A stretch of 63,840 bases of DNA, counting the filler, from Hausera hauseri (Eukaryota), in assembly GCA_046269625.1 (NCBI GenBank). It is 12 parts of 12 records of this genome, joined end to end, with 100 filler letters (N's around TTAATTAATTAA, not from the genome) between each part and the next. Parts side by side here need not be neighbours in the genome. Positions count along the whole stretch, not along the records: positions 1 to 5,647 come from JBJURY010214299.1; 11 more parts are not named here. One strand, 5' to 3'. Each line of letters opens with the position of its first letter. Within the stretch, counting starts at the first letter, position 1. The translations under genes and the position numbers were made by a program. Below, piece by piece: positions 1 through 54,697 of this stretch. The notes beneath the pieces were generated by a model. That model was not told the origin of the DNA. It made no database searches and was given only the letters and a program-made list of their open reading frames with translations.

Positions 1-1890
1 AAAAATGAATCAAATTGGCTAATTAGCTTACTTACATTGATGATGTTAATAAAACATATAAGTGCGGTAACCGTCTATGATTGTGACAAGTTTAAATTAG
101 GACAGAGATATTCCTTAATGGACCTAGAAGCCTGCGAGGACGCGAGACCGCACAAACTAGAAACACGAGAGAAAAATTACTTCCTGTATCAGCAACAAGA
201 GTCGGTATCGCTAGATGGCATGGAATGTATGCTAAAACGGTTACGCAGTATTTTTCACTGTTGACTAATACATGGGCACTCTTCCATAATTAAGCCCACC
301 ACTCCTTTAATCCCGATGAATTTGGAGCGTCAACATTGCAAACAAGCTAAGGAGATCGGAACGATACAATGGGATAGCATGCAACTGGAGATGCAGCCCG
401 GAAAAATAATCAGAGCATATAAAGTAGTAGCTGCAAGGTTGGATATGCATAGCGGACATTGTAATGGAGCAGAATACGATACCGGAAAAGGATTAGAATC
501 AAATGTCGTGGTTGTGGATTTCTATGAAGCAGAAATGCGGTCACAAAAAGTAATGTTTTACAGTGTCACAAAATTATACACCGAGAACCAGAAATGTCAT
601 ATACAAGATGGAACCTGTGCTTTTAGAAGCTCGGTCGTAATATGGGAACCTCCTTCTGGAAGAAATTGTAATTTTATTAAAATTAAGGAACTAAAGTTCA
701 ATGAAACTACCGGAAGGAGATACGTAGATAAATCGGAGGCTAATTCGAGAACACGCGAAGATGTATCGGAACAACCGACACCAACTATACTAATTTCCGA
801 CGCATACGGACTAAAATTTATTAAGAAGGAGATGATGACTCGCTGCGATGTAGCAATGTTCGCTACAAACTATGAAGCGTTCTTTGTAGCTGAAACAGAG
901 ATAAACGCGAAAACTTACAAACTAGAAACGCAGGATGTTCGGATTGAAGATTATCTGAAAAAGAGAGACGATTACTTCTATTATAAAGGACAGGTCGGAA
1001 TAACGGAATTATATCATAAAATGATTATGAATGACTGCAAATTGGATACCGAAATTATGAGAACTAAAATGACTCTCATATACGCAAACCCGGAATTAGC
1101 CTCTCCGATCATTCCTATGAGAGAAAGAATCTTCGGTCGAGTTACGGGCGAAGTGTTGCTAACCTATGAGTGCGAAAAGAGAGAAGTACCCATCAACGTA
1201 GAAGAAAAACGTTGCCTCCAAGAGCTTTCTGTTATTTATCAAAATACTCCAGGATTAGCTACGCCACTGACGAGAGTGTTATTAGATAATGCGACACAAC
1301 CAACCATACTTAAGGATTGTAAAGCAAGCCTGGGAGAGTCCATGTTTAGACGTAGCGGAACCGACTGGGTTAGTTTACCTAATGGAGGCATTACTGCCGC
1401 TCCTAGCAAACTGACAGGAACAAACCTAGCAAAAGGGATTACGGATGACAAATTCCAGGGCACCTCATCGAAAGGTATATATAGGCCAAAGGAAATCGAG
1501 GCTTTCAGGCAATTCCTTGCTTTTCCACGACAACGAACACATGAGCTAAATCGAGCGATGGCGTCTGTAGTAGACGACACCAGGTATCAAGCTAAATGGG
1601 AATCATTGCTTGGCGCAAATCACTATCAGAGGCTAACAACATAAATACTTTACAAGATTTGGGGGAGATTTTTGATATTCGGACAGGCAGCATCAGGATT
1701 TTTGGCGATATATTTTCTGATCCAAATAATTAAGGCAGTCATCCAAGCTATAATAAATGGGTACAAAATATTTACACTAACTGGATTTTCTTGTAAAATA
1801 TTGACCGCGATCATAACGCCTTGTGGGAAATTCCTGAAAGCATACAAAGACGTAGAAATCGGACGTAGAACATCATGTCGGTTACTATAA
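1..1890 (+). pseudogene. env: Env-like class III fusion glycoprotein (chuvirus G / herpes gB-like), interrupted by in-frame stops at 262-264 and 1642-1644
   Basis: ORFs 37-264, 316-1644 and 1672-1890 share one frame. Signal-like WLISLLTLMMLIKHISA, then VTVYDC...SLMDLEAC, a Cys-rich ectodomain, and the C-terminal membrane region FGQAASGFLAIYFLIQIIKAVIQAIINGYKIFTLTGFSCKILTAII, which resembles chuvirus-type G proteins. Confidence 0.82.
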
Positions 1891-1933
1891 TCGTAAACGA
1901 AGAGGAAGACCGGTATTTCTGCGGAAACGAAAA

Positions 1934-2830
1934 TTGCCAAAATCCGTTATACGAAGGAATAATTCAGATGATGATGAGCCTAAGGGAAGAGAAGCATTTT
2001 CGGGAATAAATAGACATAAGATGTACTCCGTTGTTCAAGCGCCATTACCAATGCTACCTCCTACAGCTCCCTTCTATGACGAATGCGACAAACGGTCCAT
2101 GAGCTCATATCAGACAGAAATTTATAAAAAGACAATTAATGTAGAAGACCCTTATGAAGGAACGAAACAATATGGAATCTTACGGAAAATGTGTTACCGC
2201 CAATGCGCGGATGATCCTAAGATGATATACTCACCAAGAGAAGCGAAGAATATCGAAACTAGATCGACAGTTTGGGATAACCCAAGGTTTAAAACCTTCC
2301 AACATACTGAATTACATACTAATAATCGGGAACCTTTAATTAGTACTCATGAAATTGAAGAATTGAGCGTAGAAAATAATGAATTATATCCGAACGAAGA
2401 ATTAAGACAATTATCGGGAAACATAGTTTCTGCCCCGGAAGTAACAATAAACGGACATAAAATATCGGTGACTAGACGTTCAAAAGCAGCATCGAACTGT
2501 TTTGGAACCGTGATCGAAGGAAGACCCTTCGCCAAAGTTATTATTGAGGATTGGGAAGTTTATGCACTAATCGATACAGGATCCAAGATATTTTATATCA
2601 AAAATGATTCAATACCTCAAACGTTAAGAGGACACTTATACCCGCCATCTACGAAGGATCCAGGTAGTACAGGAGCTTTTGGTCAAATGTCAAAACCAAT
2701 GTTTAAATGGAATCCGGAAGTCCAATTAATTGGACAATCGTTTTGACACGAATTTGCAGTTATGGAACATTTAACTGATGATGTCGTCCTAGGATGCGAT
2801 TTACTAAAAAGGCTAACAAATATAGCGATT
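1934..2830 (+). pseudogene. pol: Linker plus retropepsin aspartic protease of Gypsy family A
   Basis: RPFAKVIIEDWEVYALIDTGS; after the stop at 2744-2746 the frame continues HEFAVMEHLTDDVVLGCDLL (protease C-terminal LG.D motif). Confidence 0.85.
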
Positions 2831-3381
2831 GACTTGCAAACAGGGAAATTAATCGAAATTAGATCAAAAAAGGGCATAAAAACGCTAAAGATAGAAAATT
2901 TGGAGAAGTATGGATACCGGTAGACAAGAATATCCCACCGAGAACGGAAACAATAATTTACGTACAAATCCAGCAAGATGACGACCAGCCAGTTTATTTC
3001 GAACCAAAGGAAACGTTAAATCCTAATATAACACTTAGTAACGTACTTACGAGAGTACACTCCGGTCGCGTACCGATCCGAATAGCGAACAAAGCACCGA
3101 CTTCCATCAAACTCCATGCTTACACCACTTTGGGAGATACATATAGAGTATCGTCGATAACTATCGAAGAAAAACCTTATAGATGTGCCGAATTTCCGCC
3201 GCACGTCAACACAAAGTTTCCACCTGAGTCTTGTTGTCAATTTTATGAATTTCTATGCCGCTAAAAATCAATTATCGCTAAAGATGAAGAAGATATTGGT
3301 AGAGCAAAAGCGTTAAAATTAACTATTCCACTCAAGAAGAAGCCCGGTTCAAATGAAGAAATAGATTTAGAGGATCAGAAA

Positions 3382-4630
3382 ATGCCGAAATGGTACCCTC
3401 CTCCACATTCGCTAAGACCCGAGATAACAAAGGAAGTCGAGCGGGTACTGAAAGCGGATATAATTAGGCCCAGTTACCGATCATGGTACTCGCCTATCCT
3501 CATGGTGAAAAAGAAAGGCACCACGAAGCACCGATTTTGTATCGACTACAGAGCCCTAAATAATCTTATGATGAAAGATTCCTTCCCTTTACCATCAGTG
3601 AAAGAAGCCTTAGACCGACTCTCAGGAGCAAAATGGTTTACTACTCTGGACCTACAATCCGGGTATTGGCAAATAGAAATAGAGGACGAAGTTCGCTATA
3701 AAACGGCGTTCAAGACACCCGATGGTGTTTATGAATTTAACTTCATGCCATTCGGTATTACCACCGGACCAGCCATATTTACCAGAATGATGAGCAAAAT
3801 GCTAATGGGATTGGACCACGCTTTTGCATATCTGGACGACGTAATGATAGCGTCTAGAACTGAAGAGGAACACTTAAAAGATATCGAACACACGCTAATG
3901 AGACTGGAACAGGCCGGATTGAAACTAAATCTGAAGAAATGCAAATGGGCTCAAAATGCCGTGTCCTACTTAGGCCATATAGTTGGAGAAGGAGGATCGA
4001 AACCAGATAAATCATTATTGAATAAAATATCGGACTGCATGGAACCGCAAAACCAGAAAGAACTAAGGCACTGGCTAGGGCTTTGCGGATACTACGCAAC
4101 CTACGTACCGGATAATGCAAAGATTAATGCCCCTCTATATCGTTTGCTTAAAAAAGGGATTAAATGGAAATGGACAGACGTTGAGCAGAAAGCTTTTGAT
4201 GAAATGAAGAAAATATTAACAAGCGAACCCGTTTTACGATATCCAGATTTTAAGTTACCATTTATAATCAAGACAGATGCCAGTAAAGAAGGTATCGGAT
4301 ACGAATTAGCGAACAGAAAAGAGAAGACGAAGAATTAGAACATCCGATCGCTTATGGAGGACGTTCCCTAAAGAAAGCTGAGAAAAATTATTCTGTTACG
4401 GAATTAGAGACTCTAGCAGTAAAAGAAGCACTTCGACATTTTACCGTTTATGTTTACGGGCAGAAAATCATAATTGTGACCGACCATAAGGCCATTACGA
4501 CTTTAAAGGGTAGAGCCAATAATCCAACCTACAGACTTAATAGATGGATCGAAGAAATCTCCAGGTAAAATATCGAATTTCAATATAAACTAGGGAATAA
4601 ACATGTCGATGCTGATGCACTATCGAGATT
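3382..4630 (+). pseudogene. pol: Reverse transcriptase / RNase H (Gypsy)
   Basis: ORF 3382-4338 with YLDD; the frameshifted continuation reads AEKNYSVTELE...TDHKA...HVDADALSR. Confidence 0.95.
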
Positions 4631-4907
4631 AAAAACTAAAACAAGCGCAATCACCGTAATGAAGAAAAGTCAACTTGAATAGCTAATAGACCGCCAACGC
4701 GCGTTAATAATAGATAGGGCGAACAAAGTTTCAACAGAACAGAAGAAAGATAAAATTATCCAGCAAATTATAGAATTCGTTAAAAAGAATACTATACCAA
4801 AAGGGCGACAATTAAAGAAGCATTTACACAGATATGGGCATAAATACTGCGTTTTAAATGATGGGAACGGCGGAGATATTTTATATTATGAAAGAAAAGG
4901 AAGGAAG

Positions 4908-5647
4908 TTGATAGTTATTCCGAAGAGCTTACGAACGGAAGTATTAATGTCCGAACATGACTCATATTTAGCCGGACATATGTCCTGGAAGAAAATGTTA
5001 GAAAGAATAATGAATAAATATTTTTGGCCTAGCATCTACATCGATGTAAAGAACTGGGTAAATGCTTGCGAAGTATGTGCAACTAAACAGAAAAAGACGA
5101 AGAACTACATGGCCGAATTAAAACCAATTGACGTGCCCGATCGGCCCATGCAGGCCATGTCAATGGATATTATAGGACCTCTTCCTACAACTCACAAGAA
5201 CAATAAGTATATCTTAACATGCATTGATCGCCTAACTCACTTTGTTGAATTGATCGCGCTGACAGATCAAAAGGCCGAAACCTTGGAAGAAGCCGTTGTA
5301 AAGAGAATTATTTGCCGGTATGGGCCCCCAGATCAGAGACTCACGGACCGAGGGAGAAATTTTACCAGCGAATTATTTGAGAAAATCACCAAAATATTTG
5401 AAATCGAGAGATTAACTACTACTGCATACCATCCTCAATGTAATGGAATGGTCGAACGGATGAATGCTACCGTTATACGTATATTATCGACAGTAGTTGC
5501 AAAGGATCAAAAGGATTGGGATGAATTTTTAGAAGGAACCCAATTCGCTATTAATACCACACCACATCCAGCGACAGGATTCACACCATTTTTCATGATG
5601 TATGGACGTGAAGCCGTGTTACCCACGGACTTAGGAATGACGCCATA
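4908..5647 (+). CDS. pol: Integrase (Gypsy), truncated by contig end
   Basis: HDSYLAGH...CEVC zinc finger and DDE core. Confidence 0.93.
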
Positions 5648-6249: not shown

Positions 6250-6599
6250 GAGTATCGGTAGTGTGCCTCCTATCGATCGACTCGCACATAATGGTTAATC
6301 AATATCTAAGTAAAATAGCAACTCACAAGTTGGTACTTCACTAATAAGTAAAGTTTAAGTTTGAGGTTGAGGGACTCAAACTAATCTCCGATTCTTAAAC
6401 TTAACAAAAAGTCAAAATTATATTTTTATTATGTAACCTGTTAGTTTCCAATAACAAATTTCATTTTTTTGCTGAAATATAAGTTAATTCTGGACATTTT
6501 CTGAATGTTTGTATTTAAGAAATTTCCGACAATTATTCAATTCACTGGTATATCATCCAATGAAATATCCCTACCGATTTTGATATAAATTCTCTTTAT

Positions 6600-7368
6600 A
6601 TGATTGCAATTTCATTTGCTTTTTTGAACATGCTTTTTCCTTACTTTATTATTACCCTGTTTATTTCATTTACCAACGGTGTGCCCATGACAACAGTCAT
6701 AAATAATAGAACGTATTTCAGAAGACAAATCATCAAAAATGAAACAGCATTTACAGCAGCACAATATTGTGAGAGTGTCAATGGCCTTTTACCCATGGGT
6801 TATGATCTGGCTAATTTATACAGTATTGGATGGAAGAACTTTAGCTATTTTGTAGGGATATCCGATTTGGTCGATGAACGATATAACAATAAATCGGGAT
6901 GGAGAAATTTTGATGGATCTCTGTTCATGGAAACGCAGCTCTGGCATTTACCTGAACCGAATGGTGGAAAGAAGGAAAACTGTGTTAAACACACGACATC
7001 ACACGGATTGGCTGATTATGGTTGCAATGTTGTACAGAACGTTGATGGCATCTGCGTCATTAACACCATTTCGGCACCCAATTCAGAGTTTATGGTCTTG
7101 TCAAAAATGATTGTCAATCCTGGTAGTGAAGAGGGTACATCTGAGTCATACAAGTCAACGTCGATCATCGAATGTTCCTCATTGTTAGTAAATATTGATA
7201 TTGGTTTATTTGACTTTTTTCAGGTGCCTCAATAGAAAACCATACTGCAAAAGTATTTATTATCGACAAGATACGAATGCATGCATGTTAAACATTTACA
7301 CGGATCAGTCATTGCCATTGAGATTAGGTAATCAATCAGCGTTGTGGCAACGATTATCAATGACATAA
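6600..7368 (+). CDS. Secreted C-type lectin domain + PAN/apple domain protein; join(6600..7183,7224..7368)
   Basis: Signal peptide; CTLD with AAQYC...WHLPEPNGGKKENCV...LADYGC...GIC. Removing a 40-nt GTTAGT...TTTCAG intron gives the PAN-like SIIECSSLCLNRKPYCKSIYYRQDTNACML. Confidence 0.8.
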
Positions 7369-10062: not shown

Positions 10063-10208
10063 ATGGCAAAAATTGTCAGTTCACATGACGGAGAAACAGC
10101 AGCAGCGGCAGCAGCTGCGGCAGTTCTGTCACCGGAAGAAGCTAAAGGCTACCTGATACTGAAGCTCAAAGCATTCAATGGAAAATTGGGAAGTTTACTA
10201 TGATTTAA
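10063..10208 (+). pseudogene. 3' end of the conserved unknown ORF that accompanies pPolB (homolog of 54698-55162)
   Basis: IVSSHDGETAAAAAAAAVLSPEEAKGYLILKLK...GKFTMI matches the C-terminus of the 154-aa ORF. Confidence 0.8.
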
Positions 10209-10489
10209 CTGACTTACTTTGTGTTTTTGTGATTTTAGTTTTTCTCCAATCAATTAATAAATGTATTCGTATTATATATTTTGTTTTCTCGTACAAGATT
10301 ATTGTATTACTTTTACTTATATCTTACTTAATAATAATAGGTTAAGTAACCGAAAACAAAACACAATAGACACTAAACAAAGTACATGATTAACATTGAA
10401 ATAAAAAAATGTACAAATGATAATTGTCAATAACTGTCACAATATCAAGATCAGATTGAATTGCCTGTATCTGAAGGTGTTTTATTTCA

Positions 10490-13400
10490 ACCTACAATGC
10501 CAATACGCCAAACTCTTCTTTCGCCCCACTCACTTTCGCTTATCATCGGTGTATGACAAAGCAACTTTGGCACTGGATATTGTATACAGCTGGTGCTCAA
10601 TTGTTCGGATGATCGTTTGAGACACAACAGCCTTTGATTGCCCTTCTTCATAGATAGGGCGATAATCACCGTAGCTTATTTCCGTCTGGGCAAACTGAAC
10701 TCCTTTGGGGCGCATTTTTCGTCCACAGTCAGTTAAAAGACTATAACATTTTGGCCGTAGAAATATCCATTCCCGATACTGAAGACGACCTTCACTTTCA
10801 TCCTTGAAGCAGACGATTTTGTTTGTGATGGCGTTGCTGTACAATGGATGATTCTGTGGATAATTCGACGTGTCCAGTAATCCGTCTGCCATTATTTGCA
10901 CGGTAGTTGTTCGCGATTAACTTTTCCAGTTTCAAGAAAAAACTGACTGTGTCATCGGCAATTACATTGATCTTGCACCCGCCGCCGAACATTTGCCGGT
11001 AACATGCCAAATCGCGATACTGCAGCTCATATATCCGCAACTTGCTCAGGTCCAATACCCCTTGTCCTATATAACTTAACCGGTCCAGTACGACTTTTTC
11101 CCTGTTTAAAAGCACGGCAACTAATCCATCTGCAATGTGCATTGATCGCCTGAACTGTGCCTTGCTCGTGTACGTGACCAACCGCTTTTCGCTATGCCAT
11201 ATGAATACATTGAGCTGCTTTTTCAGATTCTCTACTGTTTTTCAGTAGATTTGTTTTTCAGTTTGTAATAGTCTTTTCAAACTTTTTACATGCTGCAGCT
11301 CGTTCTTCCCAATTCCGACTGATGTACGGCTTGAATATTGGAGCCTGTGCGAATCGGATTGCGCGATGCAGCTGTGTGACGTGTACACCCAACTGCATGC
11401 AAAAGTGTAACAGACGCCAATGAACTATGTAATTTTGCTTTGCTTCATGCGTCATAAGCAGCTTCTTTACCTTCGAGGCCGGCGGACATTGGCTAATTGG
11501 TGCGACCGGCAATTCATCCAGAAAGTCATGCAGCTCATCTGCTACCACGAGATCGACATCCATCAGGTATCCGATTAAGCTGTTTTCTGCTGTCGTGTCT
11601 GCTCTCGGAACATTTTCCAGTATTGTGTCCAGGTCCTGCTTGTCGACTACCCATTCGAATGAACCGTACGGCAAGGATTGTGAAAGCGCTCAACCGTACA
11701 GGTTATTAATGTCGATATACGACAGTGATGTAGTATAATCACTGATTACGTGATGCTTGTTGGCAAATGTCATGCCGCCACAAATACCAACATCAAATAT
11801 TCGGTACATTTCCGGCTCTTGCAATAGCTCGATATCCCGATCCAGTGACATAAGAGCTGATGCCCAACTCATTCTGGGTATTGAGTAAAAGTTGAGTGGC
11901 TCCAGCCTATCTTATGCCAACGCTTTAGCTCCAAATGTCTGAAACACATCGACTAACAGGTGCACGTCCAATTTCAGATACTGAAGCATGTACTCCAACA
12001 GGTTTCTGCAGCCAAACTCTGCCCAAAACAACTGCACTTTGTGATATTCTTCTATGATACCGGGCCATTGCGGTGGTAATTCGTCTGTCGTCTGGAGCCG
12101 CTCGTATGATATCGCAAAGTCATACGAGAATATGCCTTTCCTAGAAGCAATATATGTGGGGAACTGAGTCAATGTTAGCGGCACATCTGGCAAGGTATTT
12201 AGCAGCTTTTCCAGAGATTCATTGAAAAATTGCAATAAATCAAGGAAGCGTATCTGGAACCGGTTAATACGAGCAGACAGTGACAGGTATTTCTCCATCG
12301 TAGTAGGAATTATGGATAGTTCCCAGTGCGGAAATCCGTGTATGGCCCATTTGAAAATATGTTGACAATCATAACCCCGGAAGTTACGAAAAATCACCGG
12401 AAGGAATCGCCTCACATGCCTCGCCAAATTGCATGAATTGCATGTTGCTCCGAGATATCAAACTGTAAAATGGTCGTGATCCGGTACGAGCCGTTCCTGT
12501 GCATCAAACGGTAATATTTTATGGCACAGGCAACATTCATCTGTGACTGCAAACGTCAGGCGTTCATCTTCTGTCCACATCGAAGGTTTATTGCTATTTG
12601 TACTGTACCAGGGTGCGATTTCCGTTTCTATTATTGTTTCCAACTGATGCAAAAAGTCGCGTACGCAGTTCCAGCCATGAAAACGTAATGTGGTTGACCA
12701 GTGCTTTTATTGAGACAACCAACATACCGACGGCGATTGGAACATGTTCTTGGTCATATGTTGGGCCATGGTAAGATAGCTTCGATATCGGCATATGCTA
12801 CATATGCCGGACTGTCTGTTTTTGACCATTCAGTGAACCTAAGGTCCTTTTTGACGGCATGACATTCATTGTTGTTCCCGATGAATTTTGTCTGCAGTGT
12901 CACATGTTTCTCCCATGTTACTTCCGACCTAAATCCTTACAGACAGAGGACACCATTTACAACGTATACACTTTTCGATGAAGTGGTCATGTTCCATGTT
13001 CAACAGTCTGTTCAAATTTGTCACGGTCACGTAATGGAATTTTCCGTCCTTTTTCTCTAACAGCAACAAATTTATTGGGCGTCCATTCGAGTTCCAACTT
13101 CTATAGATTACGTCCACATAGGGGTTCTTGTAAATCTCTTCGTCTGCCAGTATTTCTACGATTGTGTTGTACCGAAATACGTTAACTGACAGTGTCCGGT
13201 TATGCCGCTCAAAAGTCGGAATGGTTTTCAGTTTCATCAAAGTCCAATTAGGAAAAATAATGCCGATACTGATTTGGACGATATGCACTGTCATATTTTA
13301 ACGGCCAGAATACTATAAATGNNNNNNNNNNTAAATGAAACAGTATTCGTCATCAGTATTTTTTACATTCACTGCCGCATAAGAGTTCTTTAGAGCTGTA

Positions 13401-14231
13401 GGTGTCGGTATAAATGATCTTCCGGACAGGCAAATTATATCACTCGACCTTATTATAATAAAGCCGAGAGTGACAATTTTTATAATTTGTCATCCACTAC
13501 CCTTTTCTGTGTAGTTGGTGATTTTTTCGTCGAGCTTTTCGCCTATATCGACAATAAAATCGTCGGAATACGGTTCGGCTCGATGTGACAGATACCATTG
13601 TTTCCTGTCACCTTCCAAATTTTCGAATTCTGCAAGTGCATAATATTGCACTTTGCAATGGAGATATTTGAATTTCTCAACTTCGGATTTCAAACGGTTG
13701 CGCACATTTTGCGAAACATGTCTCAGTTCCGTTGTTGTTTTCACAGACATGTTCACTTTTATGTCCACGTACGATCTGTTCATATAGTACTTGACTGTAA
13801 TGGGAATATTGGCCTCATGTTGTAGTTGTTGATGATGATAACCCTGCTGCTCCTGTTGTTGCTGCTACTCTGTACTGTGTCTGATTAAGTCGTCAAGACT
13901 TGTTGAGGTCTGACGTTTCCTACGGGTTGTTGTTTTTTCGACCGCTTAAAGTGGTTTAAGTAATCCTTGTGCAGATTATAAAATTGTTCATAGTTGATTT
14001 GAGTTTCAACTATTGAACAAGCGGGACAAACGTAGGCCGGTTTATTGTGCAGCGTTGTGGTGCCATAGTATTGCTCCATTGCACTATGACAACCACTAAC
14101 GTTGTGCACTTTATTATTGCAGTAGTGTGGGTATGTGGGAAAATGCTCAACCATCATCTTAGATCGAGTAAACGGTCCGAGTTGATGCTTGTGCACCTCA
14201 TAAAAGTCGGGGTACGGACAGTGGGCTGAAA
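10490..14231 (-). mobile_element. Polinton/adintovirus-like protein-primed DNA polymerase B, copy 1 (degenerate)
   Basis: N-terminal Cys/His region, EKGSG, YADIE (ExoI), FRNFRGYD (ExoII), DHDHFT...C..CN insert, YIDINNLYG, IADDTVSFF (decayed DTDS), FLRPKCYS, ALSYTDDKR. Confidence 0.9.
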
Positions 14232-14382: not shown

Positions 14383-17300
14383 AATATCCCCCCGTGGCTG
14401 AGTTGAAAACTGTAAAGATAAAATTAAAAGAAAATCCCGAAAACAAACAGTATAATTTGTTTAATAAGTTTTTGTGCGTACAAGACGTTGTAATCCTTCG
14501 TTATTTAATTTTCTACTATAGGTACTGAATGTAACTGATTTGCGATGTACCTTTACCTTAGTGTCTGACTGTTGACGGGGTTTGGCAAAAGAAACATTAG
14601 ATTTAGTATGATTGGGTGTTGTGTCTGGGGAAGGTAATGCAAAAGAGGGAAAAGAGGTGATTGTAGGTTAATTATTCCGGTTTTCTGCGATAGTTTCGGA
14701 AAGTGATAGGTTGAGAGAGGAAGTAGAAATAGGCAAAGGTATAGGTGTAATAAAAGTAGGAGGAGAGAAAAATGCGGAAATGGAGACAGGAATGGAATTG
14801 GTAGGTTACGATATATTCACAGAAACGGGGAAAGCGGAATGATGTGTGGTAGACTGAGGAATTGAAGTCGGGGTATAGGTGGGTACAGGGTGAGAAAAGA
14901 GGTTGATGTTTCGATTGGTGAGGTATCGTAGACGTAAAAGGCAGGTTTTAAATTAGTAATATGCACTACAACTTCTTTCCCGTCTTTGAGGATAATAGCG
15001 TTGTGCAAATGCAGCTGCACTAATTTATAGGGTCCTAAGTACTGTGGCTGGAAACCACACGGTGTCTGATTTTTTAACCATACAAACTTTGCCGAGTATA
15101 AGTCTTCTGGTATGTAAGATTTGTCATTATGTAAGAGCCTGCAAGACGAATCCTTGCTGATTGTAACGAAGTGATCCTGTGCTGCTCGTATACTCTCGTC
15201 TGTAGGGGTCTCTTCTAGAACGGTTAGTTCAAACAATGACTATACAGGGGCTCCGAATAAAGCTTCCGTTGGTGAGCATCCTGCGGAAGTGGATGGAGTG
15301 TTCCGCCAACCAAGCAGAACGAACGGTAGAAGGGTATTCCAATTTGTGTTTGATTGTGCAAGGATTCTAAGTGATGTTTTCAATGTTTGGTGGAAACGTT
15401 CGAAAAGGCCGTTCGATTGGGCGTGATAAAGTATTATATGAATGTGGCTTATTCCCAATCGGTTGACTAGGGATTTGAACAGATTTGATTCAAATTGAGG
15501 ACCTTGATCTGAGATGATATAACGATGGGCCCCGAACCTACTAATCCACGTTCGAATGAAAGTATCTGCTATTGTGTCCGAATTTGTGTTCCGCAGTGAG
15601 ATGGCTTTCGGCCATTGCGAGAAACGGTCCATCATGGTCAGAATAAATTGGTGGCCATTGTCTGTTGGGAGGGCACCGACTATATCAATATGTACTGTTT
15701 CAAAACGTGATATGCAGGGGAAGTGGTATATTGGTGGTTTCAAATGTTTTATTGTTTTATATTTTTGACAAACCACGCACTCTTTAATCTATGCTTGCAC
15801 ATCGGCGCACATGGAAGGCCAAACTACTGGATGTTGAAGCAAGCGAAAAGTTGCCTTGGCACCAAGATTATGTAATGAATGTATACTATCATATGTTTTC
15901 ATTTGTGTAAAGAAGAGCAAGAATTATTTTGGAATGTCCTGGTTTGAAATTATCTAAGGCCACACGGTCAACGATGTGGTGAGACCTGATCGACTTGAGA
16001 ATATCTTAAGATGGCTGATTTTCTTGACGTTTTAATGAAAAGTTGATTGAACCGACTGATCTAGATAAGACATCGGCAACTAGATTGTCAACACCGTCAA
16101 TGTGTTTAATGTCGAAGTTAAATGTGGATAAATATGAAATTTGTCGTTCTTGTCAAGTTGAAGGGTGGTTCATTGCCATTACATTAATCAACGGTTTGTG
16201 ATCAGTTTGAATAACAAAATGACGAGCTGTAAGTAAATGGGAAAAATGTTTTAAAGCAAGAACGATTGCCAGCAGTTCCCGATCGAAAGTTGAATATATA
16301 GTTTCGGGCAGTTTTAATTTTTGAGAAAAGAATTCTAGAGGCTGGTTTTCGCCTTTATATAATTTGTGTAGTACGGCGCTCACTGCGATGTTTAATGCAT
16401 CTGTGGTCAAAATTAGCTCAGCGTCAGGCTTAGGAAATGCTAGCATTTCAACAGTCTTTAGTCCTTTGCGTCGCCTATCAAACCTTTTAACCATTTGTGG
16501 TGTCAACTGGATTTTCTGGTGTTTTTTCCTCCGCTTAAGTGTGCAGAAGGTGCCATGAGTTCCAAACAATATGGAATATATTTGTGGACGAAATGCAAGG
16601 TACCAAGAAAACTGCGCATTTCTGTCGTTGTCCCAGGTAGTTGGACGTTTTTAAGAGTCTCAACTTGATCAGGCTAAGGTGAATGGCCGTTTGATCAGAT
16701 AATATGTCCACGAAAATTAACGCGTTTTTGGAAAAAGTTACATTTTGCAAAACTGATCTCTAAGTTGAACTGAATAAGTCATTTGAAGATAGATCATAGG
16801 TGTTCCTGGTGTTGTTTTACAGAAGAAGAAGCAACCAAGATATTGTCAATATATGTGTGTGCAAAAGGGAAGTCTGAAAGGATTGAATCGACGTGTCGCT
16901 GAAAAGTCTGCGTAGCACTCCGGAGACCGAAAGGCATGTACAAGTACTCATAAAGACCGAAAGGTGTGGTAAGGGTAGTTTTCCTGATGTCTTCCGGTGC
17001 GACAGGAATTTGATGGTATGCTTTTTCTAAATTAATTGTTGAATACATTGTAGTAGAATTAAGCTGATGTAATATGTCTTTATTCAATGGTAGTGGATAT
17101 GTATCCACTATGGTTAAAGTATTAAACTGGCGATAATCGCCGCATCGTCGGAAAGATTCATCTTTTTTGGAAAACGTGGATAGGAGAAGACCATGGGAAT
17201 TTAGATCTACGAACAATACCTAATTGTTCGAGTTCAAAAAATTACGCCTTTACTGCATGCCTGCGACAAGGTGACAATGGACGAACCTTTTGTCGAATTG

Positions 17301-17640
17301 GTCTTTGGTGTCGTGTAATTATATGGTGGTAAATGCCGTTTACAAGGATGAAATTCCGATATTTCTGGAGAATAGGAGGACAAAAAGTATTGATGAATTG
17401 TTGTAAACTTACGGGTAGTTGCTGGAATATTGGAAGTGACGATGAACCGATGTTGCTAGCAGTACTTGGTGAATGTTGGATGATTGGTGGTGGGAAATCG
17501 AGTGGAATTTAATGTAGAGTAGTCGTGTCCAAGACCATATTTGAGTAAGTGTTTAGTGATTTTACTGAAGATACAAGATCGTGAGTGTCAGCATTGAGTT
17601 GTGGCTGACTATCGACATTGTTCTTTAAAAGCTTACGAGG
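14383..17640 (-). mobile_element. pol: Ty3/Gypsy family B (CsRN1-like) RT-RNaseH-IN, degenerate
   Basis: RRCGDYRQFN, YLYMPFGLRSA, YIDNILVAS, LTTDALN, YSTFDRELLA, TDHKPL, HIDIVG...ISDQGPQF...NGLFER, PQYLGPY. A PPT-like GGGGGGATA directly precedes TGT at ~14383. Confidence 0.9.
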
Positions 17641-17646
17641 TAAAAC

Positions 17647-20445
17647 GTGATAGTTAAGAGAATTAGTATGGGGTTGCGGTACAATACAATAATAGAAATA
17701 CCGGCAAACGAAGAAATATATAAGAACCCCTATGTGGACATAATTTATCGAAATCGGAACGCAAGTGGACGCCTAATACATTTGTTACTGCTGGAGCAAA
17801 AAGAAAAGCTCTATTACATGGCAGTAACCAATTTTGACCGACTGTTAAACATGGATCACCATCAGTTTGTCCAAAAGCGTATACAATGTAAATTGTGTCC
17901 TGCATGTCTGCATGGTTTCAGGTCAAAAACAACATAGGAGAAACATGTGACGCTGTTCAAGCAGAATTTAACGGAAACAACCATGTACGTCATGCCACCC
18001 AAAAAGGAGCTCCGATTCAATGACTGGTCGAAAACGGACAATCCGGCATATGTGTTATGTGCTAATGTTGAGGCAATTCTACCCCGGCACAACGTGCATG
18101 ATCAAAAACACGTTCCAATCGCCGTTGGTATATTGATTGTCTCAATAAAAGCGGTTGGTTAGCCGCGGTATTACGTCTTTCATGGCTGGAACTGTGTATG
18201 TGATTTCCTTCAGCGTTTGGAAACGATAGTGGAAACGGAAATCGAGCCGTGGTATCGCAATAATTCCACTAAACCATTGATTTGGACAGATGAATATGAA
18301 CCGAATATGTTCGCTGCGACCGATGAATGCTACTTGTGACACAAAATATTACCGTTCGATGCACACAAACGGCTCGTACAGGACTATGACCATTTCACCG
18401 GTCGATATTTGGGAGCAACATGCAATTCGTGAAATTTGGCCAGGCGTGTGCGGCCATTCCTGACTGTGATTTTTCATAACTTCCGGAGTTATGATTGTCA
18501 CCATATTTTAAAATGGGCCATTAATGGATTTCCCGCTGAGAACTATCAGTAATCTCAATAACAATGAAGAAATACCTGTCCCTGTCAGCACGCATAAACC
18601 GGTTCCAGGTACGCTTCCTAAAACATTGCAATATCTCAATGAGTCTCTATCAAAGCTCGTAAATGCCTGGAAGAATGTGCTGATAACATTGACGAAATTT
18701 CCCACATATTGCGCGTAGCAAAGACATTCCCGTATGACATTGCAACATCATATGAGCGACTTCGAATAGAAGAAGAATTACCGCCCCGATGGACAGGTGT
18801 CGCATAGGATGAATACTGGAAAGCACAAAAGTGTTGGACAGAACTCGGCTGTAGAAACATGTTTGATTACATGCTCCAGTATCTTAAAGTAGACATGTAC
18901 TTATTAGCCGATTTGTTCCAAGCGTTTCGAGCGAAAGCGTTGGCTGAAGATAGGCTGGAGCCACTCAACTTTTATTCCATACATGGAATAAGTTGGGTGT
19001 CATCTCTAATGTCACTGGATCGAGACATTAAGATGCTACAAGATCCGGAAATGTACCAAACTGTTTGATGTTGGTATTCGCGGCGGTATGATATTTGCCA
19101 ACAAGCATCAGGTCAGTGCTACCGATACCACATAAGTGTTGTATATTTATATTAATAACCTGTACGGCTGGGTGCTTTCACAACCCTTGTCGTACGGTTC
19201 ATTCGAATGGGTTGTCGACAGACGAAATCTGGACGACATAATGGTCAACCTACCACGAGCAGATATGGCAGTCTCAATCGGATACCTGATGGAGGTCGAT
19301 CTCGTGATACCAGATGAGATGCATGACATTTTGGACGATTTACCGGTCGGACCATCTAACCAATGTCCGCTAGACTCAAAAGTAAAGAAACTGCTCATGG
19401 CGCATGAACAGAAGCTGTATTACGTGGTCCATTGGCGTCTGCTACAGTTCTACATGCAGCTCGGTGTACGCGTCACACAGCTGCATCGTGTAATCCGATT
19501 TGCTCGGACTCCAATATTCAAGGCATACATAGATGGAAATTCGGAGAAACGAGCCACAGCTTCTACAAAGTTCAAAAAGGATTATTACAAGCTGAAAAAC
19601 AATCCCATGTACGGAAAAACAGTGGAGAATCTGAAAAATCGGCTCAATGTACGCCTAAGTAACAGCGAAAGGCGGCTGGTTACGTATACCAGCAAGGCAC
19701 AGTTTCAGCGGTCAATGCACATTGCCGACGGATTAGTATAGCTGCTGTTAAACAGAAAAGTCGTTCTGGACCGGTCAAATTACATCGGACAAGGGGTATT
19801 GGACCTGAGCAAGGTGCGCATGTATGAGCAACAGCATCGCGACTTGGCACGTTACCGGCAAATGTTCGACGGCTGTAACATGAGTATACTTGCCGCTGAC
19901 AGACGGTTTTTTCCTGCGGTTGAAAAGTCAATCGCAAACAGCTACTGCAGAAAATGCAGTCAGATGGATTACTGAACACGTCCAACTACCCACCGGAACA
20001 TCTGTTGTACAGCAGCGCGATAACCAACAAAATCGGCTGCTTCAAGGATGAATGTGAAAATCGGGATCACTATCGGGAATGGATATTCCTACGCTCAAAA
20101 TGCTACAGTCTTCTGACGGACTGTAGACCGAAAATGCGAGCAAAAGGAGTCCAGCTTAAGCAGACGGAAATCGGCCACGGTGATTATCGCCATATATCTA
20201 AATCAGCAGCAGCAGCAGAAGAAGAAGGAGGACAATCAGTGGTTGTTGTGTCTCAAACGATCATCCGATCAATTGAGCACCAGTTGTTCACAATAACTAG
20301 TGCGAAAGTCGCTTTGTCATGTAACGATGATAAGCGAAAGTGGGTGGGGCGTAATAAACTTTGGCATATGGACATTGGCAGCCGAAATAAACGCACGTCC
20401 AAACAATCGGTGCTCTGTCCGTTAAGATCAGTTTATTTCCTGTGA
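17647..20445 (+). mobile_element. Polinton/adintovirus-like pPolB, copy 2 (5'-truncated, degenerate)
   Basis: INNLYGWVLSQPL, YYKLKNNPMYGKTVEN, KIGCFKDE, ALSCNDDKR; collinear with copies 1 and 3. Confidence 0.9.
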
Positions 20446-20650
20446 CAGTCATTAACAATTATCCGATGTATATTGCATTTTTATATTTCAATAACGTATT
20501 TTGCTCAGCATCTTTTGTGTTTTGTTTTCGTTTACTTAACCTATTCATAAAAGTAAAACAATAACCTTGCTCGAGAAAACAAAACATGTAACACAAATAC
20601 ATTTATTTATTGATCAGAGAAAAACTAAAATCGCAAAAACACAAAGTCAG

Positions 20651-21100
20651 TTAAATCATAGTAAACTTACCCATTTTCCATATTGGGGATTTGATGCCGC
20701 TCCTTCCCTTAAATCCTCTGAGCTTCAGTGCCAGGCAGCCTTTAGGTCCTTCCGGTGGCCAAACTGCTGCTACTTCTCCGCTATGTGAAGCATATTTTCG
20801 CCATATTTCCTTTGAGAAAAATCGAAGATGTATCTCGGATATCGTTACTCAACGCAAATCACTGTCAACTTTTCTAATTGTGCCTTCCATTGTATCCAAA
20901 TCATCGTCGCTGATCTTTTTCACCAATAGACCATATTTCACCGGTTTGATTTTTACCGTTTGGGTCAATGGCAATTGAATAGCGTTGCGCAGATAATGTA
21001 AGTTGTATCCATTATACAATCAGAAATTTCTGAGCGAATATTTGCTGTACCGTGGCTTTTTTGAGAGACTGTGACCTGCTGAATTGTTTTCCAAAGACAT
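20651..21100 (-). pseudogene. Conserved unknown ORF next to pPolB (frameshifted homolog of 54698-55162)
   Basis: Starts MSLENNSAGHSLSKK, contains YNGYNLHYLRNAIQLPLTQ, ends WKMGKFTMI. Confidence 0.8.
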
Positions 21101-21239
21101 TTTTTTTAAAAAGACAAACGTGAAATAAAATTGCATCTCTATTTATATCAAATTTGTTCACACCGGTTTGCTTTCATTGTAAACAAGAGATATTTACTTT
21201 GTGAGAATTCTCATCAGAATGATACAAATTACCTCCACG

Positions 21240-21717
21240 TCTCCGTTCATTCGTAATGTGTACAATATCCATTATAACACATTTACATTCTGGACATTGG
21301 TGGGTTACTTTAGCGGTAGAACACATTTGACAAATAACAAGATGGCCGCACATTAAGAATACCGTGTACACTTTTCTTCGTTTACATAGTACACACAAAC
21401 TGACAGTCTCGTACTTTGTCCATTATTTTCGATTTCAGGTTCTTTAATTCACCGCGTACCTTTTCAACAGTATTGAAGTAATTTATAGTATACAATCGGT
21501 GAATGCACATTTGATTTAAAACAATAATTAGATTTTCTATAGAGCTGCAATCTGTTGTTGTATTCAATGCTATTGACGCTAAATCTTCTTTAAATCCAAA
21601 ATCACCTGCTGCTCTCGCAACCAGATGACTATCAAGTACTTGCCACCATCGTACCAAGTCTGAAATTGATAATCCCTAAAAATTTTGCAATTGCTTTAGT
21701 TGATTAACTATCTCCAT
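21240..21717 (-). pseudogene. IAP-like UBA + C3HC4 RING protein without BIR domains
   Basis: LDSHLVARAAGDFGFKEDLASIAL...SSIENLIIVL (IAP UBA-like), then CVLCKRRKVYTVFLMCGHLVICQMCS...CPECK (IAP-type RING). ATG at 21717, with an early stop and a frameshift. Confidence 0.72.
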
Positions 21718-35193: not shown

Positions 35194-38100
35194 TCTGAAA
35201 GAAAATACAAAATAAGGGTCAATCCTAAAACAAAGTATTGTTCTAAAAATGAACCAATTCTTTGTTTGATAGTGGAATAACCCGATCTGTAGTTGTCAGG
35301 TTATTTCGTCATTAATTCCATCCTGTGGTACCATCACCCTTAATTCCTTGTCGGTGATTTTATGACGCTTAATACAACAGTTTTTTGTAATCAATCGACA
35401 AAACGCAATTAACATTATGAGAGCAAATGTTGATGATCCAATAATCGATATTAGTGACAAGGTTGTCTATTCAGTTAGTTTTTGTGTTTTAGTAGTAGTC
35501 GTAATTTCATATTCCTTTTCTCGTCAATCGGTGGTTTCGCTGGGACAGTCTCGTTGAGAGTCCGTGCCGTAAACGTTCTCCTTTGTTTGTTTCTGCAATC
35601 ATTTGTATTATATAATCCGTTTTGGGTTTCAGACCAGTGCATTTGGTTCGATAGCTACTCTTAACCAATGCTACTTTCTGATTATTGTGTAATGTTCGGC
35701 AGCTTATTTCTACGTTGTAGTTAAGGATCTTTAAGGATCCTTCTGAAACGATCTGTTCGTTGAAATGATTTTAAAGAGTGCTGGAGTAGTAGACTTTATT
35801 TTTGTATTTGTAATTCTACTCGTTGTCATTCCAAGTGAATTTTTCTGGATCGGATTTCTAAATCAGTAGTTTCCTAGAGAAATACTCGACTGGTTTGGTT
35901 TGACTTCATATAAGTTTAACTGAACTCTATATTTAAATTTCTGGGGTAACTTGCAGCATCTTTTCGGTTGCCCGACGTCGATTTAATAGTACTGTTGGTT
36001 TTGAGCTACTATGTTTTCTTTCAGGAACCGGAATGAGATTACTTGACCGTTAATTAATCTTACTTTTGTATTTATTTGAACACAATTGTCATTTGGATTT
36101 TCTTTTATACTGGCGATATTTTCTTCCAGCATCCGCTTTACTGGGTCGACGGACTGGAACATTTCGTTGGGTTTTATCCCAGGATGCCTGTTCCGAGCAG
36201 GGATGACTAATTGAAATCGTGGATTTATTTCATAAATTTGAGATAATTTTGGTAGACACAGTCGGTAGGTAAGGTTGCAAGTGCGTCCGAAATCCGTATC
36301 GCAACATTGCGTATGCTCTCCGGGCCCAAAATCACAATTCCTTGCTTCTTTTGTTATTACATCTTCTAGGACAATTTGAAATCTTTTAGAACTGTGGTGT
36401 TGTCCCGTGCCTTAAATCCAACGCATGTGGAGTTCGGCGAGTAATAATGAATTGTGACTGATTGTAATAACGTAATATCTTTTCTTCTTTGGATTTCTTC
36501 TAATGTTGGTATCTTTTCCGTTTTATTTACCTCTGGTTTGGATCCACTTTTCCGCCCTCCGTATACATTCTTTAGTGTAGATCCGTCGTGACACCACGGA
36601 GTTTGTGTTCTCGGAATATAAGAAGCAATTAGCGATGATGCTAAAACTATCTGAACGTATGATATCGGTCTGGTGATAATTGACGAGATCTTATTTTCTC
36701 GTGGTCTTAGATTGTAATGTTTAGCTGACCTTATATCCGTTTTAACTACTCTTTGAATCGATACGACTTCCTCTTTCCCGTTTTTATTGATATAAACTGT
36801 GGTTGGTGTTGTACGGATGATTTCATACGGTCCCTTCCAGTAAGTGTTAATTTTAAAGATGTACTTTCTTTGCGACTGGGTAATGTATATAAACCCAATT
36901 TCCCTTTTCCAGATCATGAGGCTTAGTCTTTTTATCATATTGTTTTTTAAATTGTTCCTGATATTCGATTGATAATGTTTTTGTCATTTCCCAACACTTT
37001 TGCAATCTGGTCTGTAAGACTTCGGCAAAATTTTGCTCTAGATCCTCGAGGATCTTTTTGTACGGTGTCATACCTAAATCTGTAGGTAAGATTGCTTCTC
37101 GTCCATACATCATAAAGAACGGTGTAAATCCTGTTGCTGGATGTGGAGTTGTATTTATCGCGAACTGTGTTCCTTCTAGGAATTCGTCCCAATCTTTTTG
37201 GTCTTTGGCCACTACTGTTGATAGTATAAGAATGACTGTTGCGTTCATACGTTCGACCATTCCATTACATTGGGAGTAATACGCGGTAGTAGTTAAACGT
37301 TCGATTTCAAATAACTTGGTAATTTTTTCAAATAATTCGCTTGTGAAGTTCCTTCCTCTATCCGTTAAAATCTGTTCTGGTGGTCCAGATCTGCAGATGA
37401 TTTTCCTTATTACCGCGTCGGCTAGGGTTTCTGCCTTTTGATCTAATACTGCCACCAGTTCAACGAAGTGCGTTAGTCGATCCACGCATGTTAGAATATA
37501 TCTTTTATTTTTGCGAGTTTTAGGCAAGGGTCCTACTATATCCATAGACATGGCTTGCATGGGACTATCTGGTACGTTTATAGGTTTTAATTCTGCTACG
37601 TAGCCTTTCGTTTTCTTTTGTTTTGTCGCGCAAACTTCGCACGCTCCTACCCAATTCTTTACATCGATATAGATGCTTGGCCAATAGTATTTATTTAATA
37701 TTCTTTCCTATGTCTTCTTCCAAGACATGTGTCCGGCTAAGTATGAATCGTGTTCGGCCATGAGTACTTCGATACGCAATCCTTTTGCAATAACTATTAG
37801 TCTTCTTCCTTTCCGCTCGTAATATGGGATATTATCTTGTTTTGATGCATGATATTTATGTCCGTGTTTCTGTAGATGCTTTTTTAGTTGTAGTCCCTTT
37901 GGTATTTTATCGTTTTGTAAGATCTCGATAATTTTCTGAATAACCGTGTCTTTAGCCTGCTCACTTGTAATTCTAATCGTCTTACCCGATATTAGAGTTC
38001 TTTGTCGTTCAATCAACTGTTCGAGTTTTGGCATTTTTATTGTGGTGATTGCACTCGTTTTTGTCTTTCATCTTGACAGTGCGTCGGCGTCGACGTGTTT

Positions 38101-39285
38101 GTTACCCGGTTTGTTTTGAAATTCAGTGTTATATCGTGAGATTTCCTTGATCCAACGGTTTAACTTACATGTCGGATTATTAGCTCGCCCATTCCATGTC
38201 GTAACTGCTTTATGATAGGTCGTTATTATAATCTTTCGTCCACAGACATAGGCATTAAAGTGTCGTAGTGCTTCGTTTACGGATAACGTTTCTAATTCGG
38301 TAACTGAATAATTCTTTTCCGCTTTCTTCAATGAGCGTCCTCCATAGGCTATTGGATGTTTTAATTCCTCGTCTTCTCTTTTCTGAGCTAGTTCGTACCC
38401 TATACCTTCTTTACTTGCATCTGTTTTAATGATGAATGGTAGGTTAAAATCCGGGTATCTTAAAACTGGTTCGCTTGTCAGAACTTTCTTAATTGCGTCG
38501 AATGCTTTTTGTTTCACTTCCTTCCATCTCCACTTAGTCCCTTTTTTGAGTAGGCGATATAGTGGTGCGTTAATTTTCGAATTGTTCGGTGCGTAAGTGG
38601 CATAATATCCGCATAGGCCTAACCACTGTCTTAACTCTTTTTGTATCTGCGGTTCCATGCAATCGGATATCTTAGTAGAGATTTGTCCGGTTTTGATCCT
38701 CCTTCTCCAACTATGTGTCCGAGGTACGATACGACGTTCTGTGCCCATTTACACTTTTTTGGATTTGGTTTCAACCCGGCTTGTTCCAGTCTCATAAGTG
38801 TATCCTCAATATACTTTAAGTGTTCTTCTTCTGTTTTTGATGCTATCATCACGTCGTCCAGGTGCGCGAATGCATGATCAAGTCCCATGAGAATCTTATT
38901 TATCATTCTAGTAAAATAGCTAGTCCTGTGATGATGCCGAAAGGCATAACATTAAATTCGTATACGCCATCGTGTGTTTTGAATACTGCCTTATATCGAT
39001 CTTCTTCTTCAATTTCCACTTGCCAGTATCCCGATTGTAAGTCGAGAGTGGTGAACCATTTCGCTTTTTATAGTCTGTCTAAAGCTTCTTTTACTGACGG
39101 TAGAGGCAACGAGTCTTTCATCATCAATGTGTTTAATGCGCGATAATCTATACAAAACCGATGTTTTGTGGTTCCTTTCTTCTTAACCATAAGTATGGGC
39201 GAGTACCATGATCGATAACTTGGTCGAATTATGTCGGACTTTAACACTTACTCTAATTCCTTAGTTATCTCCGGTCTCAATGAGT
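35194..39285 (-). mobile_element. pol: Gypsy family A, copy 2 (RT-RNaseH-IN plus 3' membrane-protein region)
   Basis: Motifs nearly identical to copy 1 (IIKTDASKEGIGYELAQ, EHDSYLAGHMSWKK, KDQKDWDEFLEGTQFAINTTPH). Confidence 0.95.
35296..36700 (-). pseudogene. Integrase-fused type I membrane protein (signal-like segment, Cys-containing ectodomain, FN3, TM)
   Basis: ORF 36366-36938 runs from the IN C-terminal WKGPYEI into YVQIVLASSLIASYIP. Downstream are CTGLKPKTDYIIQMIA (FN3 motif) and the TM LSLISIIGSSTFALIMLIAFC. Confidence 0.72.
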
Positions 39286-42697: not shown

Positions 42698-43864
42698 TCA
42701 TTCTGACAGCTGCGTGTTTGTATTGAGGGCATCTTCTTCGTAATCCCTCACTCCCTTACAAACCTTACATGACAGCAGACGCCGAAATGCGTTGTAGAAA
42801 TTTCTATTAAAATAATAATACAGTAGTGGATTCATAAGAGAGTTGATATAGCCGAGCCACAACGCAATCTGCCAGGGTACATACATCAGTGAGTATCCAA
42901 GCAGAGGGTCGATGATGTTCATAATGAAAAACGGAAACCAGCACACGGAAAAGCAGCCCATAATAATTCCAAGCGTTTTGGCTGCTTTGGATTCTTGTTT
43001 AAATTTGCTTTTTCTTTTGCAGTGATTATAATGATTATGATTCCCAGCAGCTTCAAGGGTTCGAATCTGATGCGCTTGTTTGACAGCCGCCATGTATATC
43101 TTTACATTACAGACAGCCATAAACGCTACGGGAATGTAGAAAGCTATCAAGGAGCAGATAAATGCGAAAGGTATATTCACGACGAACGAGCAGACTTTGG
43201 CGTCTGTTGGATACGCGCAGCTGACAATGTCTTCAATTCCGACATGATTCCATTCATTGAAGATGGGAATAAATGAGATGAAGATCGGTGTCATCCAACA
43301 GAAAGCAAGCATAGCTGCCACCCAACGGAAAGATAAACGTTCGTGGAGAAACGGGCGACAGATGGCAAGGTAGCGGTCTATGGCGAGGCACGACAGATGA
43401 AAAATTGACACGGTACACATCATAACATCAAGACTGGATGAAAGCTTACAAAGCAACTCGCCAAGATGCCAGACTCTGTTGTTGACTTCTTGGTATATGG
43501 AAAACGGCATGACGAAGAGGGAAACACACATATCAGCAACAGCCAATGAAACCACGAAAGCGTTTGTAGGCGTCCTGAGTTTTCTGTGTGTTATGACAGC
43601 TAAAATGACGACGCAGTTCCCAAACATGGTCAGGATCGGCACGCATATGAGAACCACTGAAATAGTGTATCTCATGGCGTCGTCGTATTCTGGAGGTGGA
43701 CCGGCCATATGGGCCAAAATTTCCTCGCATTTTAATGGTGATGAATTGAAGTTGTTTTCCGCCACTGGATGAACTGTAACGTCGGCGTTGATGTAAGCCA
43801 AATGATCGATCTCCTGTGGGGAAATCGAAGTTACTAGATCATGTCGACTACCTTTAGATACCAT
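42698..43864 (-). CDS. HTR4: 5-HT4-like aminergic class A GPCR, coding region uninterrupted
   Basis: GN, SLAVAD, D3.32 (LDVMMC), DRY, WMTPIFISFIPIFNEWN, CSFVVNIPFAFICSLIAFYIP, KAAKTLGIIMGCF.VCWFPFF, WLGYINS.MNP.LY. TM4-TM7 closely resemble 5-HT4. First ATG at 43864; a splice acceptor-like TTCTTGTAG lies just upstream. Confidence 0.88.
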   Translation of the reverse strand: MVSKGSRHDLVTSISPQEIDHLAYINADVTVHPVAENNFNSSPLKCEEILAHMAGPPPEYDDAMRYTISVVLICVPILTMFGNCVVILAVITHRKLRTPTNAFVVSLAVADMCVSLFVMPFSIYQEVNNRVWHLGELLCKLSSSLDVMMCTVSIFHLSCLAIDRYLAICRPFLHERLSFRWVAAMLAFCWMTPIFISFIPIFNEWNHVGIEDIVSCAYPTDAKVCSFVVNIPFAFICSLIAFYIPVAFMAVCNVKIYMAAVKQAHQIRTLEAAGNHNHYNHCKRKSKFKQESKAAKTLGIIMGCFSVCWFPFFIMNIIDPLLGYSLMYVPWQIALWLGYINSLMNPLLYYYFNRNFYNAFRRLLSCKVCKGVRDYEEDALNTNTQLSE

Positions 43865-44039
43865 CGTGTGCACACATTTATTGAAACGCACTGGCTACAA
43901 GAAATACATTAATGTTAACCAGCCAATACTATTAAGCTCAAAACTATTATTTTAATATTTCTTACTTGAGAATTGATGCCCTTTAATGTTAATTACTTGA
44001 TTAATGGAGATCTTTGGAGTTATTTAAACTTATGAAGGG

Positions 44040-54529: not shown

Positions 54530-54650
54530 CTTCTTCTTCTTCATTAACGGAACGTGGGTTTCAATGACGTGGAGGTAATTTGTATCATTGTGGTATGAGA
54601 CAATACTCATAAAGTAAATATCTATTGTTTACAATGAAAACAAAACTTTG

Positions 54651-54660: not shown

Positions 54661-54697
54661 AGATGCGATTTCAGTTCACGTTTGTCTTTTTTATACA

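Follow-up and report, generated by a model that had tools for sequence, protein, structure and literature searches.

A decayed Ty3/Gypsy element of the gB-type GAG-ENV-POL kind in Hausera hauseri and a putative second membrane protein in its family

A contig of Hausera hauseri (assembly GCA_046269625.1) carries what is probably, at roughly 78%, a decayed copy of a multicopy animal Ty3/Gypsy (Metaviridae) element of the gB-type GAG-ENV-POL kind, which was once made as one polyprotein. The window, that is, the whole stretch of 63,840 nucleotides analyzed, is made up of 12 short contigs in a row with N-TTAATTAATTAA-N spacers between them, and the element on the first contig (positions 1–5647, + strand) is referred to here as copy 1. 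Within copy 1, a class III fusogen region (1–1890) is followed by a coding linker and then by the Ty3/Gypsy domains PR-RT-RH-IN, env being located directly 5' of pol on the same strand with a gap of less than 2000 nt. The contig opens at base 1 and stops at 5647 within the integrase; gag and the LTRs would lie beyond it.

Two sister copies were detected elsewhere in the window. Sister copy 2 (58547–63840, +) contains PR-RT-RH-IN and then a further protein behind the integrase (the post-IN protein), and is 77.9% identical at the nucleotide level to 2559–5647 of copy 1. Sister copy 3 (35194–39285, −) contains RT-RH-IN and then the post-IN protein, with 74.9% nucleotide identity to 3415–5647. None of the three copies is complete, each being truncated where its contig or the window ends.

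Glycoprotein and enzyme domains of copy 1

The original prediction described a frame open from base 1 that runs through an internal signal-like segment into a glycoprotein of ~600 codons. Both the segment and the glycoprotein were found, but stop codons at 262 and 1642 interrupt the frame, which closes at 1890. Positions 1–66 (+) comprise the end of an upstream part and the signal-like segment (residues 6–22, ahead of a YDC motif; nt 16–84), whose h-region covers residues 6–17 and which is likely cleaved after residue 22. Because no Met is present ahead of the h-region, the ORF appears to begin 5' of the window, and the segment is placed like the internal signal segments of polyprotein relatives. 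The Env ectodomain (67–1656, +), which is of the class III (gB/chuvirus-G) type, contains 14 cysteines and both internal stops. Next comes a region (1657–1890, +) in which the membrane anchor (residues 557–586) precedes an amphipathic segment, and where frame +1 ends. The original prediction named a YDC start and a C-terminal hydrophobic region as features of chuvirus-type G proteins, and both are present, the YDC motif standing after the signal segment. No furin-type R-x-K/R-R site was found in copy 1 env.

The three stop-bounded pieces of env (~600 codons) match PF24664 (Monjiviricetes_fusion) at profile positions 5–86, 89–506 and 538–600, with E values of 1e-6, 8e-33 and 2e-14, respectively. 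For structure prediction, the env translation was read through with X at both stops, and an AF2 model based on 117 sequences reached a pLDDT of 85 and a pTM of 0.62. Using Foldseek, we found that all 39 PDB rows listed for this model are herpes gB (best E 4e-13), and that the top matches in a viral structure library are chuvirus-like G proteins (E 2.5e-38, TM 0.5–0.6). A VIA structural search returned four matches at Z of at least 8, all of which are gB (best Z 10.4, rmsd 9.8, 424 aligned residues), and the Bourbon virus glycoprotein scored 6.1. Across the 117 sequences, four ectodomain cysteines never vary and another eight are conserved at 90% or more. The profile and model comparisons support a class III viral fusion protein fold for copy 1 Env, as had been proposed, and make it a predicted fusogen.

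Pfam matches in copy 1 follow the order RVP (weak), RVT_1, RT_RNaseH, Integrase_H2C2 and rve, which is the Ty3/Gypsy (Metaviridae) order, and no Pao-type family was found among them. The aspartic protease (2519–2851, +; DTG at 2573, stop at 2744) matches PF00077 with an E value of 0.028, under the curated cut-off; it aligns with the proteases of relatives and is 69% identical to that of the sister copy. A post-protease domain, RT and RNase H occupy 2863–4565 (+), with frame changes near 2882 and 4311 and a stop at 3262, and the integrase, with an H2C2 zinc domain and core, occupies 4683–5647 (+) up to the contig end, by which it is cut. Copy 1 is 23–31% identical to its relatives in env and 40–46% in RT. 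A BEL/Pao (Anakin-type) element was considered and rejected on the basis of the Gypsy-type Pfam set and the RT identity to Gypsy-type relatives.

Polyprotein relatives and the frame change behind env

A word-based protein search with env gave no match at near or longer lengths, which reflects the sensitivity of such searches, since a full HMMER search with the same env detected 655 proteins, the best 150 of which were listed. Locus searches revealed at least three loci in metagenome contigs and no match in viral contigs or bacterial genomes. The relatives come mostly from ENA and JGI contigs; one of them, P0002, is recorded as part of a bacterial MAG and is probably a stray eukaryotic contig.

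Of the best 19 of the 150 listed matches, 14 extend as far as the env TM; in 11 of these 14 the protein goes on to a protease motif, and the other three stop 12–57 residues later without a protease. In the remaining 131 listed matches, the TM is reached by 118, two of which have a protease motif behind it. Domain scanning of 18 proteins revealed Env-PR-RT-RH in one chain in five cases, four of them with IN. P0105 has the usual order, integrase then env, and P0024 has DUF5641 ahead of env. Gag markers were found ahead of env in the same ORF in P0007, P0013, P0016, P0017, P0002, P0008 and L003, and the order Gag-signal-Env-TM-PR-RT-RH-IN was observed in one ORF in several relatives. L003 is a single ORF of 2693 aa from Gag to the end, and L001 is an ORF of 3426 aa whose 5' end is open. 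In L002, Gag is followed by an in-frame TGA (L002:3058–3060) and then by the env signal; P0004 is continuous at that place, and the TGA may be either a mutation or a read-through site. The placement originally proposed, with env flanked by gag and pol in one polyprotein, is supported for the lineage by intact relatives, but copy 1 itself is broken at the env/linker join and lacks its 5' end, and for this copy we infer it.

In a quick env tree (33 rows, midpoint root, no bootstrap), copy 1 falls within a 17-row polyprotein clade with an SH-aLRT of 100, on a long branch of its own (1.87). The RT tree contained just one element from outside the set, which puts monophyly beyond its reach.

Env is encoded in frame +1 (TGA at 262, TAA at 1642, end at TAA 1888–1890), and the linker and protease in frame +2 (1856–2746), with a further stop at 2744 within the protease; the two frames overlap over 1856–1890. 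A linker of about 200 codons leading to a DTG protease without an LTR-like break had been predicted. The coding linker and the protease exist, but in frame +2 and not in the env frame, and self-BLAST of the window found no repeat or LTR-like sequence within 1–2558. The linker (1856–2518, +) is an open, poorly conserved frame with no significant match among the relatives, and it would form the cytosolic tail of Env. It contains a PTAP-like motif, PPTAPFY, which we take to resemble a late domain. From 1856 to the DTG the frame is free of stops for 239 codons, and none of 20000 shuffles was open in that frame. In copy 1, ~304 codons separate the env TM from the DTG, versus 129–223 residues in 11 relatives and 389 in a further one.

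The switch from the env frame (+1) to the linker frame (+2) lies at 1849–1890 (+), a place at which the length of other copies differs from that of copy 1. Related contigs were detected in two public runs, X1 and X2 (23198 and 1849 contigs, a depth that is not a copy number), and are present in each of the 30 bins from env through linker to pol; X1 is possibly the source sample. There are 11 rows of length differences in all, 8 in X1 and 3 only in X2, and those of X1 are listed solely at 1849–1854 and 4311–4312, i.e., at the env/linker and RT/RNase H frame changes. Four stops of copy 1 (2744, 3262, 4566 and 4680) are missing from sister copy 2, which differs from copy 1 in length at 2882 and 4311. 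Substitutions between these two copies are mostly at third codon positions (19/8/41 by position in PR, 57/32/202 in the RT region and 61/43/199 in RH+IN). Given that other copies differ in length at the join and that 11 of the 14 nearest full-length env relatives are continuous there, the env/PR frame break in copy 1 looks like decay. The multicopy comparison thus revealed length differences at the join, but its contigs are too short to span the whole env/PR join, so that frame continuity in the family of copy 1 is a point we infer and consider very probable.

A different arrangement, in which env and pol were separate ORFs joined by programmed frameshifting or splicing, would yield less Pol and make the frame change original. 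The overlap of the two frames, the three close relatives that end soon after the TM and the stop that separates Gag from the env signal in L002 would fit it. No Ty1 or Ty3 +1 frameshift motif was found at the join, however, and the lone XXXYYYZ heptamer (1825) lies out of register and would lead into a closed frame, giving no indication of a programmed frameshift there. Considering also the continuity of most close relatives, and that the length variation among other copies at the join recurs at the RT/RNase H break, we regard this arrangement as unlikely. It is far less credible still that the glycoprotein is an independent chuvirus-derived insertion beside or inside a Gypsy element, of the sort reported next to Gypsy fragments in arthropods (PMC10084718). 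Chuvirus G proteins are indeed the top structural matches, but retroelement polyproteins are the nearest sequence relatives of env (E down to 3e-92), with the chuvirus G protein P0022 (E 1e-30) ranking well behind them, and env groups with such polyproteins in the tree. Moreover, the linker is an open frame and contigs of both runs cover every bin from env to pol. A Jingchuvirales endogenous viral element was likewise rejected, the nearest relatives being retroelement polyproteins and the coding linker running on to PR.

A putative membrane protein behind the integrase

Sister copies 2 and 3 both extend past the integrase, through a GPY/F region, into a signal-like segment; the reading from GPY/F to the signal is one frame with three stops in sister copy 2 and has no stop in sister copy 3. 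Behind this segment, both encode a Cys-rich ectodomain and a beta-rich module, and then a Thr-rich stalk that leads to a TM and a tail. In sister copy 2 (+), the signal (~62030–62090) precedes the Cys-rich ectodomain, an FN3-type module (62925–63170), the TM and a tail to 63422. In sister copy 3 (−), the signal is at ~36670–36610, the FN3-type module at 35770–35570 and the TM at ~35457–35400. An in-frame signal-like segment behind GPY/F was observed in all eight relatives that reach this point (P0002, P0003, P0011, P0152, P0157, P0166, L001 and L003), and at least seven of the eight have a further hydrophobic segment at the end. It is likely that the family carries a second, hitherto undescribed membrane protein behind the enzymes; no single copy holds env and the post-IN protein together, and the two are linked via the sister copies and the relatives.

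The FN3-type module of the window's copies (C-x2-L-x-P-x-T-x-Y type) is common to five of the eight relatives, and the post-IN ectodomains of P0011, P0166 and L003 are of other types. Pfam fn3 matches one of eight members (sister copy 3, E 7e-4). Four of the five module-bearing relatives contributed to a profile, and P0157, which was left out of it, gave two matches at E ~1e-4. Comparison of this profile with the PDB returned 58 matches (best E 5e-4), 54 of which are named proteins known to bear FN3 domains, one being unnamed and three unrelated. A word search with the profile retrieved one multi-FN3 protein, and an AF2 model of the post-IN protein had a pLDDT of 39. Weak but consistent profile matches thus suggest an FN3-type identity for the module. 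Between the sister copies, the post-IN protein diverges faster than Pol (89/80/106 by codon position, 228 codons).

Hydropathy, considered together with general knowledge of signal and stop-transfer sequences, suggests how the polyprotein may have been threaded through the membrane. When active, its full order would have been Gag - signal 1 - Env ectodomain - TM - linker - PR - RT - RNase H - IN - signal 2 - second ectodomain with FN3-type module(s) - TM - tail. Signal 1 would thread Env into the ER, where signal peptidase would cut ahead of YDC, and Gag would stay cytosolic, hanging from the membrane by signal 1. The Env TM would stop transfer and leave PR-RT-RH-IN in the cytosol, so that Pol would be anchored at both ends, by Env at its N-terminus and by signal 2 at its C-terminus. 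Signal 2 would make the second protein a type I membrane protein by exporting it to the lumen. Gag might then assemble on the membrane and bud, with Env trimers outside and Pol inside, and Pol would be packaged without a Gag-Pol frameshift. Signal peptidase would set the glycoproteins apart and the element's own protease would free RT and IN, and Env would fuse membranes, with the FN3 protein as the best candidate for attachment or as an entry accessory.

Tethering of Pol and its release by proteases are consistent with the hydrophobic pattern observed in the relatives. P0016 and L003 carry two hydrophobic segments before env and P0166 carries three behind IN, indicating that simple alternation fails for some members. 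In L001, an extra signal-FN3-TM cassette is present between two protease copies, which would keep the enzymes on the cytosolic side. In flavivirus and hepacivirus polyproteins, the enzymes face the cytosol from a precursor threaded through the membrane. The foamy virus Env leader peptide is likewise a signal segment that links capsid protein to envelope (PMC7828637); neither system is homologous to these elements, and the analogy is one of mechanism alone.

We tentatively propose, at somewhat less than even odds, an undescribed lineage of two-glycoprotein, retrovirus-like elements, in which one ER-threaded ORF would provide a gB-type fusogen before Pol and an FN3-type attachment protein behind it, with Gag, Env, Pol and the attachment protein in 1:1:1:1 proportion and with membrane tethers, in place of Gag-Pol frameshifting, packaging Pol. 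If true, this would account for cell entry by gB-type errantiviruses in the absence of gD or gH/gL. The attachment role taken by itself has about an even chance. The post-IN protein could also be a captured receptor-like decoy, a modulator of signalling or a mere membrane anchor for Pol, a possibility that we would not discount even if it falls a little short of an even bet. In its features the protein resembles host FNDC9, FNDC5 and cytokine receptors (scores 0.88–0.90, leads only), its ectodomain type varies among relatives, and the presence of Bcl-2-like and ubiquitin-like domains in relatives indicates that these elements capture host domains. On the other hand, a signal and an ectodomain occur at the same place in eight of eight relatives and evolve faster than Pol, and attachment proteins tend to evolve fast. 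Synthesis at 1:1 with Env on the same membrane would favor packaging, and herpesvirus gB-type fusogens need partner glycoproteins (PMC13524379). An attachment protein behind the integrase would offer a concrete partner candidate for the lone gB-type fusogen, with a testable topology, and surveys whose annotation ends with the integrase can overlook one of the genes of such elements.

Known systems and additional sequences

The position of env before pol, which the original prediction had implied to be unusual, is already known, as it has been published for gB-type GAG-ENV-POL errantiviruses of Nematoda, Bryozoa and Platyhelminthes, which are non-monophyletic (Chary and Hayashi 2026; PMC13524379). 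Copy 1 has in common with them a Ty3/Gypsy pol, an HSV/gB-type env with signal and TM before pol, and many copies in an animal genome. The same paper calls their entry mechanism unknown and credits the nematode env-before-pol case to Sacco et al. 2022. The sections covered, figures aside, describe neither a single membrane-threaded ORF nor a second membrane protein behind the integrase, and the terms "fibronectin," "polyprotein" and "single ORF" have 0 occurrences in its main text. None of four env motifs searched for occurs in its 7 supplementary files. Unlike those elements, which were included on the basis of intact ORFs, copy 1 has several stops and frame changes; because it is decayed, this has no bearing on its lineage. 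In the literature covered, most of it outside subscription journals, we found no post-integrase FN3 membrane protein and no membrane-threaded Gypsy polyprotein, and Sacco et al. 2022 or the figures of PMC13524379 may already cover the post-IN protein.

Env resembles Jingchuvirales G and herpesvirus gB in its fold, YDC start, conserved cysteines, central helix and C-terminal anchor, whereas those proteins stand alone at ~650 residues or more, are 9–25% identical, and are not fused to Gag or Pol. The nematode ERVs of Sacco et al. 2022 (J Gen Virol 103:1739) are said to have a continuous gag-env-pro-pol ORF and a glycoprotein resembling those of negative-strand RNA viruses; that study reportedly deals with nematodes only, and the extra ORFs are reportedly a small hypothetical protein or a helicase. 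Anakin, a Pao element with a chuvirus glycoprotein, contains the same glycoprotein family within an LTR element but has a BEL/Pao pol instead of the Ty3/Gypsy pol found here, and BEL/Pao envelope genes are located downstream of the polyprotein (PMC7642597).

Several relatives contain additional domains. A Bcl-2-like stretch ending in GGW was found just ahead of the env signal in P0004, P0005, P0166, L001 and L002; PF00452 matches that of P0005 with an E value of 1e-3, under the cut-off, and the stretch is possibly a captured anti-apoptotic domain. A ubiquitin-like domain is present between Gag and env in L002 (aa 650–701, PF00240 E 0.005), and similar ones occur in P0007 and P0157. The aspartic protease domain is repeated in P0152, P0007, P0003 and L001, some copies being behind the integrase, and P0152 (4844 aa) has seven Pfam protease stretches plus ankyrin and C2H2 domains. 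A separate exonuclease ORF (PF00929) is located 3' of the L001 polyprotein (L001:10617–12104), and DEDDy ORFs have been reported in rotifer LTR elements (PMC5408684). In P0075, immunoglobulin domains are fused ahead of a Monjiviricetes-type glycoprotein.

Other contigs of the window encode a rhodopsin-class GPCR (42701–43894, −) and a C-type lectin (6564–7235, +) of the host, which is therefore an animal. An ORF at 51745–52404 (+) is presumably transposase-like. A further, distant Gypsy pol, whose RT is ~30% identical, lies at 14991–17340 (−), with no env match in the window. Three decayed pieces (10063–14231, 17673–21699 and 54061–58446) are 75–79% alike, and we take them to resemble the DNA polymerase B region of Polinton-type elements.
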